Shown: positions 2,287-6,399, counted from the stretch's first letter. The stretch is DNA of 32,000 nucleotides from Alkanindiges illinoisensis DSM 15370 (GCF_000619845.1 NZ_JHUX01000007.1:90001-122000); one strand, 5' to 3'. The notes: a model not told the origin generated them from the letters alone. Made by a program: numbers and translations.

Positions 2287-2361
2287 GTAGGCGATACCAT
2301 TGTCTGGGACTGTAGCGGGCAATATATTGCTAAAGTTAATTTGCCACAGCAATGTCAGTAA
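2287..2361 (+). other. In-frame continuation after the TAA at 2284-2286, encoding a pilin C-terminal disulfide loop (VGDTIVWDCSGQYIAKVNLPQQCQ) and ending in tandem stops TAA TGA
   Basis: Direct translation of the same frame. The W-x-C ... LP-x-x-C pattern is the conserved D-region of type IV pilins. A double stop follows at 2359-2364. Confidence 0.7.
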
Positions 2362-2396
2362 TGAGCGATTAAAAGCAGCGGATTTAACGCTTATCT

Positions 2397-2747
2397 TTAA
2401 CCTGCCAATGTCGCGTAACTGGCTGGATCAAAACCTACCAGAATTTGCTCCCTGCTAACCAGCACTGGCCGTTTGATCATGCTGGGGTTGTCCTGTAAAG
2501 CCTGAAGCGTGTGCTGTGGGCTGGATAAAATAGCAGCCTGTTGCTCGGGGTTAAACTTGCGCCAAGTGGTGCCTTTTTTATTAAGTAAGGCATCAAGGCC
2601 GACACGGCTGGCCCAATGTTCAAGCGTGTTTAAATCAATGCCGTGTTTTTTATAATCATGAAATTCATAGCCCAACTGCTGAGTATCTAGCTGCTCAAAG
2701 GCTTTTTTCATGGTGCTGCAATTTTTAATACCGTAAACCGTTAACAT
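2397..2747 (-). CDS. yffB: ArsC/Spx-family protein, YffB-like
   Basis: MLTVYGIKNCSTMKKA...GTTWRK...MIKRPVL...GF closely follows the E. coli YffB pattern (YGIKNCDTIKKA, GTTWRK, IIKRPLL). Confidence 0.85.
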   Translation of the reverse strand: MLTVYGIKNCSTMKKAFEQLDTQQLGYEFHDYKKHGIDLNTLEHWASRVGLDALLNKKGTTWRKFNPEQQAAILSSPQHTLQALQDNPSMIKRPVLVSREQILVGFDPASYATLAG

Positions 2748-2850
2748 GACCTATCCTCAATAAGCAGGCAGCACATCATAGTCAATTGTGCTTGCACAAA
2801 TCCAATGAATATAAAGCTAGACAGTGATTTACGATCTTAAAAGACAGTGA

Positions 2851-3069
2851 TTAATTTCTGGACAGTTTAACCATGCTACAGGACACATATTTCTCCTGCT
2901 GGTTGGGGCCTAAAATATAGCAGGCTTCTTTACCCAGATCGTATTCATAAATGATACTTGAATTTTGTTTATTATTAAAAAAGCCCAGATAGGTAAACGT
3001 GCCAACACAGACTAGTAATAAGACTGTCAACAAGCTATAGAGTATGCGGTGAGATTTATTGGGGAACAT
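2851..3069 (-). CDS. Small hypothetical single-pass membrane protein (72 aa)
   Basis: ORF with one hydrophobic segment (ILYSLLTVLLLVCVGTFTYLGFF). No clear SD and no family recognised. Confidence 0.35.
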   Translation of the reverse strand: MFPNKSHRILYSLLTVLLLVCVGTFTYLGFFNNKQNSSIIYEYDLGKEACYILGPNQQEKYVSCSMVKLSRN

Positions 3070-3144
3070 AGTGGCTTTACTAATTTGTTATGTGGCCATA
3101 AAAAAGGATGATAAAAACTGAAAAGGCAAAAGCACATTCAGACA

Positions 3145-3305
3145 AAATGGAGAAAACCCGCGCCAATATCATCCTGATAGCGCGGGTCTCAAGTCAACGT
3201 CCTGTCTTTGCTTCCATACAGTATTGTAATGTCCTACACTACAAAACCTTTCCATCCTACGGCAGTCCTTCCTTTCTGGTCATCCTGACCGACTTCCCTG
3301 TGCCG
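3145..3305 (-). ncRNA. Csr/Rsm-family CsrA(RsmA)-sequestering sRNA (RsmY/RsmZ/CsrB-like); ends approximate
   Basis: The minus strand has 10 GGA motifs in about 160 nt, three of them as CAGGA(U/C)G. A GGUCAGGAUGACC hairpin lies at 3278-3290. The terminal GC hairpin ACCCGCGC/GCGCGGGU (3156-3187) has AUCAGGAUGAU in its loop and is followed by UUUUCUCCAUUUUG. A -10-like TATTCT sits at 3310-3315, with a GacA box upstream. Confidence 0.75.
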
Positions 3306-3362
3306 TAAGAGAATAATGCGCTTTTATTGTTTGTTTGAAAATAGTAAATTAACGTCATGTTA

Positions 3363-3380
3363 TGTACGCTCAGGCTTACA
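3363..3380 (-). promoter_or_regulatory. GacA/UvrY-type upstream activating palindrome (TGTAAGcctgagCGTACA on the minus strand)
   Basis: Matches 11 of the 12 specified positions of the consensus TGTAAG-N6-CTTACA. It is centred about 70 bp upstream of the inferred sRNA 5' end, as at rsmY/rsmZ/csrB promoters. Confidence 0.65.
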
Positions 3381-3424
3381 AAGCGTGAACACAGTCACAA
3401 AAGAAATAATTACGGAAAACTCAC

Positions 3425-4207
3425 TTAAAGCACATAATCAATCACAACTGGCGCATGGTCACTAAAGCGTTCGTCCCGGTAAATAAAGGCATTGGCGACC
3501 CGGTCGCGCCAGTCCGGGGACACCACATGGTAATCAATGCGCCAGCCCACATTATTGGCCCAGGCCTGCCCCCGATTAGACCACCAGGAGTATTCGTGCG
3601 TATCTGGACGATGAACCCGAAAGGCATCCACATAGCCTAATTCGTCATATAAGGTGTCCAACCAAGCGCGTTCATGTGGCAAGACGCCGGAATTTTTCTG
3701 GTTGCCTTTCCAGTTCTTGATATCAATTTCTTTATGCACAATGTTGTAATCACCGCAAACAATAATGGACTTGCCTTGTTCACGCCATTGCCTGAAATGA
3801 AGCAGCATTTCCTGTAAAAATAAATCTTTGCGCGCTTGTGCGTCATCACCGCTGGAGCCGGATGGCAGATATAGCGATGCCACTACAAAATTTTTGCCTT
3901 CGCTGGTTTGAAACTCCGCAGCCGTAAAACGGCCTTGGGTGTCACAAATATCAAAACCCAAGCCATTATTAATACTGCTAAACGGATGGCGGCTATAAAT
4001 GGCCGTGCCTGAATAACCGGGTTTTTCGGCATGGCACAGGTGCATGTGCCAGCCCGCAGGTTTATGTTCTTCCAGCCACTGGTGCGGTTGCAAGCGGGTC
4101 TCCTGCATGCAAACAATGTCGGCACCTGAATTTTCCAGCCACTGAAAAAACCCCTTGGCCGTGGCCGAGCGTAAACCATTTACATTAATTGACACCACCC
4201 GAAGCAT
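3425..4207 (-). CDS. xthA: Exodeoxyribonuclease III
   Basis: MLRVVSINVNGLRS, CMQETR, GDYN and SDHAPV are EEP-nuclease motifs. The ATG at 4207 has a GGGG SD-like element. The longest ORF extends to 4240 without an SD. Confidence 0.93.
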   Translation of the reverse strand: MLRVVSINVNGLRSATAKGFFQWLENSGADIVCMQETRLQPHQWLEEHKPAGWHMHLCHAEKPGYSGTAIYSRHPFSSINNGLGFDICDTQGRFTAAEFQTSEGKNFVVASLYLPSGSSGDDAQARKDLFLQEMLLHFRQWREQGKSIIVCGDYNIVHKEIDIKNWKGNQKNSGVLPHERAWLDTLYDELGYVDAFRVHRPDTHEYSWWSNRGQAWANNVGWRIDYHVVSPDWRDRVANAFIYRDERFSDHAPVVIDYVL

Positions 4208-4309
4208 TTTTGCCCCAGTGTCTAAATCCTTTGCTATCATGCGCGCTGATTACCTTGTATACCTTAACTTTCGTTGTTAAATAACCAATTAAATAAACAG
4301 GAGCCTGCC

Positions 4310-4960
4310 ATGTCATCTGTTCAGCCTTTTAGTCCTCAAGCATTGATCGAACTGGCATTAAAGCGTGGTGTGCTCAAGTTTGGTGAGTTTACTTTAAAAT
4401 CCGGTCGAATCAGCCCTTATTTTTTTAATGCTGGTTTGCTCAATGATGGCGAAGCATTGTCTCTGCTGGCCAGTGGTTATGCCGACAAGCTGATGAACTG
4501 CGAAAGCGTGAGCGTGATTTTTGGCCCGGCATACAAGGGGATTCCGTTTGTGGCTGCAACCGCATCGGCACTTTGGCAGCAGCATGGCGTGAATGTTCCA
4601 TGGGGCTTTAACCGCAAGGAAGCCAAGGATCATGGTGAAGGTGGGATGCTGGTGGGCGCGGATGTGAAAGGCCAGCGCGTATGGATTATTGATGATGTGA
4701 TTACGGCGGGCACGGCCATTCGTGAAGTGGTGGATATTCTGCAAGCTGCCGGGGCAACGATTGCAGGGGTACTGGTGGCGCTGGATCGTCAGGAAAAGGG
4801 ACAAGGGGAGTTATCGGCCATTCAGGAAGTGGAAAAGCAGCTGAATATTCCGGTACATGCGCTGATTACCATGCAGGATTTGATGGATTATTTAAAGAAA
4901 AATAACCGTAGTGATGATCTGGCTAAAATGCAGGATTATCGGGAGAAATATGGGGTTTAA
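4310..4960 (+). CDS. pyrE: Orotate phosphoribosyltransferase
   Basis: [18 protein letters not shown] plus the PRPP-binding [21 protein letters not shown] lies 7 nt before the ATG at 4310. The track ORF starts at an upstream TTG at 4274. Confidence 0.95.
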
Positions 4961-4983
4961 GTTGGTCAAATAATATGCTATTT

Positions 4984-5014
4984 TGTACACACTCAATATA
5001 AATTGGTGTGTACA
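4984..5014. promoter_or_regulatory. 9-bp perfect inverted repeat TGTACACAC-N13-GTGTGTACA at the vapB 5' end (candidate VapBC autoregulatory operator)
   Basis: Arms at 4984-4992 and 5006-5014, read directly from the sequence. Each arm contains a TGTACA palindrome. The repeat overlaps the possible vapB start codons. Confidence 0.4.
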
Positions 5015-5269
5015 GTGACCGAGTATATTACCCGTGTGTTTAAAAATGGCAATAGTCAGGCAGTACGTATTCCTGCTGAATTGCGTCTCAACAGTGACCG
5101 TGTGCAAATCTTTAAAAATGCGCAGGGTGATTTAGTGATTCACCCGATTCAGGCCAGCCGTGGTGCAGCATTCATGCAGGTGCTTCAAGGTTTTGATGAT
5201 GAATTTATCCATTTTATGGAGCAGGAACAGCAAGAGGCTTTACCACTACAAGAGCGTGAAACATTATGA
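5003..5269 (+). CDS. vapB: VapB-type antitoxin (SpoVT/AbrB-like)
   Basis: VFKNGNSQAVRIPAELRL is an AbrB/MazE-fold motif. It overlaps the downstream PIN gene by 4 bp. The start is uncertain (TTG 5003, GTG 5006 or GTG 5015). Confidence 0.85.
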   Translation: MVCTVTEYITRVFKNGNSQAVRIPAELRLNSDRVQIFKNAQGDLVIHPIQASRGAAFMQVLQGFDDEFIHFMEQEQQEALPLQERETL

Positions 5270-5673
5270 GGTTTATGCTCGATACCAATATTATTATTTA
5301 TCTCATTAAAAATAAGCCAGAAAGTGTTGCAGCCAAAGTAGATCAATTAAAACCTAATGATGATTTGGTGATGTCTTTTGTCACTTATGCAGAATTATTA
5401 AAAGGTGCTGAAAATAGCAGCCAAAAAGCGAGAGTACTTCATAACCTTGAAAAGCTCATTGAGCAAATTTCAGTGGTTTATCCCATTAATGCACAGATTT
5501 GCCAGCATTATGCTGTTCAGTTCTTAAGGCTCAAACAATCTGGAACTTTAATTGGTGCTAATGATTTATGGATTGCCTGTCATGCCTTGGCTGAACAAGC
5601 AGTCTTGGTGACTCATAATGTGCGTGAGTTTCAGCGGATTGATGGCTTAGTGATTGAAGACTGGGTAGAGTAA
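5266..5673 (+). CDS. vapC: VapC-type PIN-domain ribonuclease toxin
   Basis: MLDTNIIIY (N-terminal PIN Asp), ANDLWIA and THNVREFQRI. ATGA overlap with vapB. Confidence 0.9.
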   Translation: MRFMLDTNIIIYLIKNKPESVAAKVDQLKPNDDLVMSFVTYAELLKGAENSSQKARVLHNLEKLIEQISVVYPINAQICQHYAVQFLRLKQSGTLIGANDLWIACHALAEQAVLVTHNVREFQRIDGLVIEDWVE

Positions 5674-5757
5674 AACCAATTACAAGAATGATCCTATAAA
5701 AATGCAGTATTATTATGAAAAGTAAGGGGCATAATCATAAACTTTCAAAAGCCAAGT

Positions 5758-5991
5758 GTGTATAACTTTCAGTTATCAAATCAGATACTAGGAAATCTAG
5801 CTGGCGCTGGGTTTCTGGCTATGCTTTTTATAGATATGCTCACTTATTGTAATTTGCCTTATTTATCAGAGTTAGCAGATTGGTATTTCATATCGTTTGC
5901 TATTTGCATAATACCTTTCGGTGTATTTGTTATAACAATTTCTCGCCAAAAAAAGCAACCAGCATCTATACAGAAGAAAATTTTTCTATAA
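5758..5991 (+). CDS. Hypothetical small membrane protein (AT-rich)
   Basis: GTG-start ORF with two hydrophobic segments. It is lower in G+C than its neighbours. No family recognised. Confidence 0.4.
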   Translation: MYNFQLSNQILGNLAGAGFLAMLFIDMLTYCNLPYLSELADWYFISFAICIIPFGVFVITISRQKKQPASIQKKIFL

Positions 5992-5999
5992 GTGAGATA

Positions 6000-6287
6000 A
6001 TGGATAGGCTACCGAACTGGCTAAATTCTCTACTAATTACAGTTATTATTTATGTAGCTTATAATTTCATTAAGTGTTCTAGCTTGTTACAAGGACAGAC
6101 CATTATTGAAGATGGAAATTTTGCCATAAACAATAAGGGCAGTATTACTTATATAAGTCATGCTTACTATATCCAACATCGGCTATATGAACTGCGGTTG
6201 TGGTCAGGCGCTTTATTAGTATTTTATCTTATACCAGCCGTTTATTACCTGTTTTATGCACGACTTAAAAACTTGACACAAGTATGA
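6000..6287 (+). CDS. Hypothetical small membrane protein (AT-rich)
   Basis: The ATG at 6000 (MDRLPNWLNSLLITVIIYVAYNF...) is the plausible start inside track ORF 5880..6287. Two hydrophobic segments. No family recognised. Confidence 0.4.
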   Translation: MDRLPNWLNSLLITVIIYVAYNFIKCSSLLQGQTIIEDGNFAINNKGSITYISHAYYIQHRLYELRLWSGALLVFYLIPAVYYLFYARLKNLTQV

Positions 6288-6399
6288 CGTGAATTTTTCT
6301 TTCGAGGAATCTATTGGCTTATACAACGACAATTTTAAACCAAAAAAAGTACGTCATTCGCTATACTTCCGTATCTTTAAAAATTAGCGATAAAAAACA

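Follow-up and report, generated by a model that had tools for sequence, protein, structure and literature searches.

What, if anything, is encoded in the 355-bp gap (3070-3424) between a small ORF (2851..3069, minus strand) and an ExoIII-family gene (3425..4240, minus strand) in the window, the 32-kb stretch of Alkanindiges DNA analysed here? An earlier note on this DNA had held that the gap is not empty, and every sequence feature that it listed was found in its place. From these features and their conservation, we conclude that 3306..3151 (minus strand) is probably an independent gene, encoding a non-coding CsrA (RsmA)-sponge RNA of about 156 nt under a GacA-activated promoter.

The locus and its neighbours

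The upstream neighbour of the RNA, the ExoIII-family gene, is divergent from pyrE. Its product matches the xth family model TIGR00633 (238 bits); among PDB entries it is closest to Neisseria NApe (2jc5, 270 bits), with Pseudomonas Crc (4jg3) at 206 bits. Its identity to the protein from Alkanindiges illinoisensis is 95%, and to those from two other Alkanindiges species 92% and 81%, which places the window in Alkanindiges (Moraxellaceae). In the 90% UniRef cluster that holds the A. pittii and A. baumannii proteins, one name is "Catabolite repression control protein", so that our gene is the one named crc in some Acinetobacter annotations. The gene earlier called xthA is better described as this pyrE-linked ExoIII-family gene; we use xth/crc below.

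Downstream of the RNA are a lineage-specific small ORF and then an ArsC/YffB-family gene (arsC-family below). The small ORF (2851-3069, minus strand, 72 aa), which follows the RNA terminator and precedes the arsC-family gene, has a hydrophobic N-terminal segment. It is conserved in comparison loci L001 (97%), L002 (81%), and L085 (47%) and absent from Acinetobacter, and searches of Pfam and NCBIfam gave no match to it.

On the other side of xth/crc, the pyrE ORF as mechanically called (4274-4960, plus strand) starts with TTG at 4274 and encodes 228 aa, whereas its relatives are annotated with 215-216 aa. A start at the in-frame ATG at 4310 (MSSVQPF...) would fit the length of the relatives and leave about 69 bp between pyrE and xth/crc. 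Between pyrE and gshB (5003-5673, plus strand) is a VapBC-type toxin-antitoxin pair, in which an 88-aa MazE/AbrB-like antitoxin ORF overlaps a 135-aa PIN-domain toxin ORF. The pair looks like a mobile insertion, since it is present in L091 and L002 and a different ORF occupies its place in L085. Neither csrA nor uvrY/gacA homologues were found in the 32-kb window, and searches that included a covariance model found no second copy of the RNA in it.

A predicted GGA-rich RNA

The predicted RNA runs from the invariant ACGGCA (A3306) to a U-tract, both ends being placed at conservation boundaries. The covariance model R1 scores it at 181 bits over its full length, and it folds better than all 200 of its dinucleotide shuffles (z = -3.3). 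Ten GGA triplets are found in 3143-3305 (minus strand), starting at 3297, 3285, 3272, 3268, 3257, 3253, 3234, 3215, 3202, and 3174. The mean for the minus strand is 1.53 GGA per 163-nt window and ten is the maximum on that strand, so the earlier count of ten in about 160 nt, far above chance, is confirmed. Eight of the ten have an AGGA or ARGGA context (by hand count). Three are in hairpin loops (those of hairpins H2 and H3 and the inner loop of the terminator, described below), two of them in the context CAGGAUG.

Orthologues carry 8-10 GGA. Of 31 distinct family sequences, 30-31 have each of seven GGA, an eighth persists with its register shifted by one base, and the hairpin sequence around the conserved triplets turns over freely. 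The relatives are set apart by indels whose lengths are not divisible by three, which speaks against a coding function.

An ORF antisense to the RNA (3108..3308, plus strand) was rejected as coding. It has no Pfam match, and in relatives it is split between frames (L085), truncated (L091 and L004), or absent (Acinetobacter). The suspicion that this ORF was spurious was well placed. A second 163-nt segment with ten GGA, at about 4780-4942 (plus strand) inside pyrE, was rejected as a codon artefact: eight of the nine GGA counted in 4780-4942 fall in one register (xxG-GAx), reflecting the Glu/Asp-rich C-terminus of PyrE.

Secondary structure

RNAalifold, applied to a MAFFT alignment, gave a closing helix (H1), a hairpin (H2), and the terminator but missed the central hairpin (H3), which MAFFT had placed out of register; re-alignment with R1 restored H3. 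In the R1-based alignment of 31 distinct sequences, which is fitted to the model and so biased towards structure, 96.0% of cells are paired, and sliding the 3' partners lowers this to 31-47%. Covariation scores 0.335, a value that none of 500 shuffles reaches; the shuffles score 0.092 and the slid controls at most 0.080. Twelve pairs show compensatory change, with eight in H3, two in the terminator stem, one in the terminator inner hairpin, and one in H2; H1 and most of the terminator are invariant and hence uninformative. Covariation in the aligned sequences supports four of the predicted helices.

The 5' domain (3259..3306, minus strand) is closed by H1 (3306-3302 with 3263-3259), which encloses GGA 1-4 and H2. 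H1 never varies and therefore says nothing on pairing. The GGA of this domain have unpaired probabilities of 0.83-0.99. H2 (3290-3278, minus strand; GGUC-AGGAU-GACC, GGUCAGGAUGACC) belongs to the RNAalifold consensus and has one covarying pair (GC in 20 sequences and UA in 10). The hairpin loop with GGA that had been noticed here is present, and its pairing is backed by covariation.

The central hairpin H3 (3224..3244, minus strand; UUGUAGUG-UAGGA-CAUUACAA) has compensatory changes at all eight pairs across the 31 distinct sequences, with 88% of cells paired. Its primary sequence is unrelated between clades, and the GGA loop occurs only in the Alkanindiges clade.

The RNA ends in an intrinsic terminator (3143..3190, minus strand) with a GC-rich stem (3190-3180 with 3163-3153), the loop AUCAGGAUGAU, and then UUUUCUCCAUUUU, the U-rich tail extending to 3143. 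The inner AUCA-GGA-UGAU loop presents a GGA. In this element 99.7% of cells are paired and two stem pairs covary (AU/GC/CG/UA and UA/CG), so that both folding and covariation uphold the earlier description of a GC-rich terminator hairpin with a GGA loop and a U-rich tail. A simple terminator scan was negative because the loop is longer than the 8-nt limit of the scan.

None of the ten GGA falls within a helix of the consensus structure. The ensemble unpaired probability is 0.71-1.00 for nine of the ten, compared with 0.41 for all nucleotides, the exception being the GGA at position 105 (0.24). Folding had been suggested as a check on GGA exposure, and it finds the triplets exposed and not buried in stems.

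The predicted promoter and the GacA-type box

The GacA/UvrY box has the consensus TGTAAG-N6-CTTACA. The palindrome TGTAAGCCTGAGCGTACA (3363..3380, minus strand), a putative GacA/UvrY-type upstream activating site centred at -64.5 from the predicted start, agrees with this consensus at 11 of 12 positions and is the sole match in the window with one mismatch or fewer. At that threshold 0.04 matches are expected per window (4 of 100 shuffles had one), so the reported fit of this 18-bp palindrome to the box holds; at up to two mismatches 1.2 matches are expected and a match is not significant.

The box matches at 11-12 of 12 positions, centred exactly at -64.5, in all nine Alkanindiges-type copies, including a paralogue in L004 and the truncated L086, and it is perfect (12/12) in L003 and L086. 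Its right half, C-TACA, is invariant in the 12 sequences of alignment A2 and at least 90% conserved in 19 Acinetobacter-type promoters. The left half is degenerate in the Acinetobacter orthologues, where only the right half is conserved at that position. The survival of only this half-site accounts for the candidate RNA of Acinetobacter sp. ADP1 having been recorded without an upstream site by Kulkarni et al. (PMC1488887). Given the degenerate left half and the ADP1 candidate without a site, GacA control may not be family-wide.

A weak -35-like hexamer, TTTTCA (3336..3341, minus strand), can be read from the sequence 17 bp upstream of the -10, and a T-rich block is conserved at this position in A2 and in the Acinetobacter-type promoters. 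Such a weak -35 would fit an activator-dependent promoter. The predicted -10 hexamer, CATTAT (3313..3318, minus strand), is part of a block, GCATTAT, conserved across both genera. It occurs in 9 of the 12 sequences of A2, and the rest have single-base variants such as CACTAT and CAATAT. The hexamer TATTCT, which had been proposed as the -10, exists at 3315-3310 but varies, and it is the overlapping CATTAT (3318-3313) that is conserved. The predicted +1 is A3306, because the invariant ACGGCA starts 7 nt after the -10. A simple promoter scan found promoter-like matches only inside the RNA, and these are not conserved.

The conserved -10 and start are kept in L092, where a gene has been inserted between xth and the RNA, and at other loci (L163 and L156). 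This persistence of the promoter block and start despite insertion and relocation points to an independent transcription unit.

Another palindrome, GTGAACA-nn-TGTTCAC, is strongly conserved just after the xth/crc stop codon (L082 3826-3841 and 19 Acinetobacter-type loci), with symmetric variants that preserve pairing (GTGTAC/GTACAC, GTTTAC/GTAAAC, and GTAAAC/GTTTAC). Its role could be that of a stem-loop at the 3' end of the upstream mRNA, or of a site for a regulator. Its counterpart in the window, at 3385-3398, is weak (-3.1 kcal/mol) and also resembles TGTGA-N6-TCAC.

Distribution and paralogues

The element downstream of xth/crc is conserved in three Alkanindiges genomes, one Moraxellaceae MAG, metagenomic intermediates, and Acinetobacter. 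The Acinetobacter that carry it are A. pittii, A. johnsonii, A. modestus, two other species, an A. baylyi-type contig, and A. baumannii, in which the orthologue is at CP010397.1 150554-150701 (minus strand). Across the two genera and 31 distinct sequences, the core of the RNA is near-invariant while both flanks diverge. Family copies have nhmmer E-values of 1e-33 to 1e-54, and full-length copies score 128-182 bits with R1 (131-146 bits in A. baylyi-type, A. baumannii, A. pittii, A. johnsonii, and A. modestus DNA).

Profile and covariance-model searches of the compared loci found no copy in A. marinus, Moraxella nasicaprae, Agitococcus, or the non-Moraxellaceae loci. Because several loci have xth/crc and no RNA downstream (L088 from Acinetobacter marinus, L090 from Moraxella nasicaprae, and L005-L008), the element is not universal in Moraxellaceae at this position. 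The arsC-family neighbour is also missing in A. marinus and M. nasicaprae.

A scan of metagenomes with a two-block pattern, followed by a covariance-model filter, gave at least 29 further family loci; among the matches listed, 51 of 80 were non-members by the covariance model. Nearly all low-GC members share the gene order pyrE (leftward), xth/crc, RNA, and arsC-family (all rightward). The high-GC members have other downstream genes, encoding a methyltransferase, a 2OG oxygenase, or prc.

Several copies depart from the common arrangement. In two higher-GC contigs the RNA is duplicated in tandem after xth, the copies being about 170 nt apart (L131 444-598 and 765-920; L142 2984-3138 and 3305-3460). 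The L004 paralogue (6278-6395) has its own GacA box and lies 2.2 kb downstream, beyond a gene for a 7TMR-DISM GGDEF diguanylate cyclase (4249-6165); a full-length version of it is found at L107 12777-12927. Some copies have no xth nearby, such as the one directly downstream of a tail-specific protease (prc) gene at L163 1670-1817 (minus strand), on a contig with a GC content of 0.54, which has a 9/12 box and scores 99.5 bits. In L092 (Acinetobacter sp. HY1485), a 219-aa opposite-strand ORF (2349-3008) is inserted between xth/crc and the RNA (3337-3489), whose promoter is retained and whose 3' end is only 49 nt from the arsC-family gene.

Relation to known CsrA-binding RNAs

The RNA has all five of the sequence features by which Kulkarni et al. 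define CsrA-regulating sRNAs (PMC1488887). It is intergenic, the only overlapping ORF being antisense and unsupported; it is rich in GGA, with 10 in 156 nt; it ends in a Rho-independent terminator; its GGA lie in loops or single-stranded regions; and the Alkanindiges-type copies have a conserved upstream 18-bp site of the UvrY/GacA type, of which Acinetobacter has only a half-site. At the level of sequence, the RNA has the architecture of the RsmY/RsmZ/CsrB class that had been claimed for it, namely dense and exposed GGA, hairpins, a terminator, and a box at a fixed distance.

A search of the whole window with Rfam 15 at the gathering score gave no match to a Csr/Rsm family. At E<=10, region 3050-3450 again matched no Csr/Rsm family and gave only chance matches to eukaryotic families (UCA1 and snR63), and Rfam searches of the orthologous loci gave nothing but a tRNA. 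The RNA is outside the curated CsrB, CsrC, RsmY, RsmZ, and RsmX families, and its likeness to characterised sponges, with no Rfam Csr/Rsm match, is one of architecture alone and not of homology. The models concerned include RF00195, RF00166, and RF02144 for Pseudomonas RsmY, RsmZ, and RsmX and RF00018 and RF00084 for E. coli CsrB and CsrC. The earlier note had named, as a combined sign against a sponge, the lack of a covariance-model match and GGA in stems; the first half applies, as no Rfam model matches, and the second does not, as the GGA are exposed.

Like the Pseudomonas RNAs RsmY, RsmZ, and RsmX, the Alkanindiges RNA is small (about 110-160 nt), has GGA in loops and linkers, and ends in a rho-independent terminator (PMC11611043, PMC7911923), and in both a palindromic GacA UAS lies upstream of a weak promoter (PMC11611043, PMC7911923). 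They differ in helix layout and primary sequence, with no covariance-model similarity at E<=10, and in the Alkanindiges RNA the terminator loop itself presents a GGA. The mechanism proposed for the Alkanindiges RNA would be the same as that of E. coli CsrB and CsrC, with titration of CsrA by repeated GGA and activation by a UvrY/GacA-family regulator. E. coli CsrB is about 370 nt long with about 18-22 sites, compared with 156 nt and 10 in the Alkanindiges RNA, and there is no model match.

The closest relative is in the sister genus Acinetobacter, which carries the orthologue. In 2006 Kulkarni et al. predicted an RNA called "rsmB" in Acinetobacter sp. ADP1 between crc and ACIAD3528 (PMC1488887). 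It has the same position and orientation as ours, with pyrE leftward and xth/crc, the RNA, and the arsC-family gene rightward. The Acinetobacter element shows clear homology in sequence and structure, with eight GGA positions and the terminator loop in common. Two differences are that the full GacA palindrome at -64.5 is present in the Alkanindiges type and its right half alone in Acinetobacter, and that the GGA loop of the central hairpin is limited to Alkanindiges. The suggestion that a divergent family member might be found here has thus proved correct, although the Acinetobacter orthologue at the same locus was predicted in 2006 (PMC1488887).

Acinetobacter baylyi has gacA, gacS, and csrA (PMC12455638), and CsrA-binding sponge RNAs are found in Acinetobacter (PMC13643297, PMC13516227). 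Reviews citing Singh et al. 2025 give A. baumannii three CsrA sponges, CsrB, CsrC, and CsrD (PMC13516227), and A. baumannii CsrB was enriched in CsrA RIP-qPCR (PMC13643297). The Acinetobacter counterpart of our RNA may be one of CsrB, CsrC, and CsrD.

Psychrobacter arcticus has a predicted rsmX between prc and slyD (Kulkarni et al. 2006, Table 2; PMC1488887), and the family member in L163 is likewise adjacent to prc, a likeness of locus and not of compared sequence. This arrangement suggests that other Moraxellaceae-like genomes hold prc-linked members of the family.

Alternative explanations

The RNA could be a CsrA sponge without GacA control, its palindrome being vestigial or the site of another regulator. 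Gac-independent RNAs of this kind, RsmV and RsmW, are documented in P. aeruginosa (PMC7911923), the Acinetobacter orthologues retain the right half-site only, and the ADP1 candidate was listed without a conserved upstream site (PMC1488887). We nevertheless think this unlikely, in view of the match of the box in the Alkanindiges clade (11-12 of 12 positions) at an invariant distance in nine copies, one of them a paralogue elsewhere, and of the chance expectation of 0.04. Moreover, even a half-degenerate box, TATAGCGAAACGCTTACA, is a functional GacA site in P. brassicacearum rsmX (PMC7911923).

Other explanations deny that the RNA is a sponge. It is very unlikely to act in cis on the downstream genes, as their leader or as a read-through unit, or to be a base-pairing RNA of the Hfq/Crc or CrcZ-like type. 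In nearly all low-GC members the RNA and the arsC-family gene point the same way, in L092 the two are 49 nt apart and remained together despite the insertion, and the RNA adjoins a gene named crc in some annotations. However, a strong terminator supported by covariation separates it from the downstream genes, these genes differ in the high-GC members (methyltransferase, 2OG oxygenase, or prc), and selection is on the GGA triplets and not on a contiguous pairing seed. A CrcZ/CrcY-type reading was rejected, as none of 12 orthologues has AAnAAnAA Hfq/Crc motifs. We regard it as extremely improbable that there is no functional RNA at all and that the region is a GGA-rich spacer by chance or encodes a protein from 3108..3308 (plus strand). 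A stop-free antisense stretch does span the region in the Alkanindiges clade, but opposite a purine-rich sense strand an open frame is expected by composition alone, and this ORF lacks a family match and breaks up in L085, L091, L004, and Acinetobacter. A chance spacer would also be hard to reconcile with a core conserved far better than its flanks in two genera and 31 sequences and with helices preserved by compensatory changes.

Proposed mechanism and significance

For a CsrA sponge under GacA control, the reading that we prefer, we propose the following mechanism. Phosphorylated GacA, a response regulator of the UvrY/GacA family, would bind the palindrome centred at -64.5 and activate a promoter of the sigma-70 type, in which the -35 is weak and the -10 is CATTAT. 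The RNA made from it would consist of a closing helix at the 5' end, two short hairpins, and the terminator, and about 8-10 GGA would stay exposed, some in hairpin loops and others in single-stranded linkers. Since a dimer of CsrA or RsmE binds two exposed GGA, one RNA with ten sites could hold up to about five dimers. CsrA would in this way be titrated from its mRNA targets and its translational control relieved. For the Alkanindiges RNA we infer transcription, the exact 5' end, the dependence on GacA, and the binding of CsrA.

The sponge kind of RNA is already known and the Acinetobacter orthologue already predicted; what is added is the Alkanindiges member, and the understanding of the mechanism is unchanged. 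With a counterpart already predicted in the sister genus, the RNA is a useful annotation and not a surprise. With it, a Gac/Csr regulatory node is placed in Alkanindiges, a genus of hydrocarbon degraders that has been little studied. A further gain is a covariance model, with an alignment of 31 sequences, for a family of Moraxellaceae sponge RNAs missing from Rfam. Lacking an Rfam model, the RNA is overlooked by annotation pipelines, also in the pathogen A. baumannii, in which CsrA is conditionally essential (PMC13643297). The full box of the Alkanindiges type and the half box of Acinetobacter offer a concrete and testable way into the evolution of Gac control over CsrA sponges.

A broader and rather doubtful proposal is that the RNA is the founding sequence of an undescribed Rsm/Csr family that spans the Moraxellaceae and occupies several loci (xth/crc-linked, prc-linked, and tandem), with a box intact in the Alkanindiges-like lineages and decayed to a half-site in Acinetobacter. 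If this were true, the A. baumannii orthologue would have partly escaped Gac control or had it re-tuned, a natural regulatory rewiring of a CsrA sponge, and the conserved place beside a crc-like gene could hint at a coupling of two carbon-control systems.
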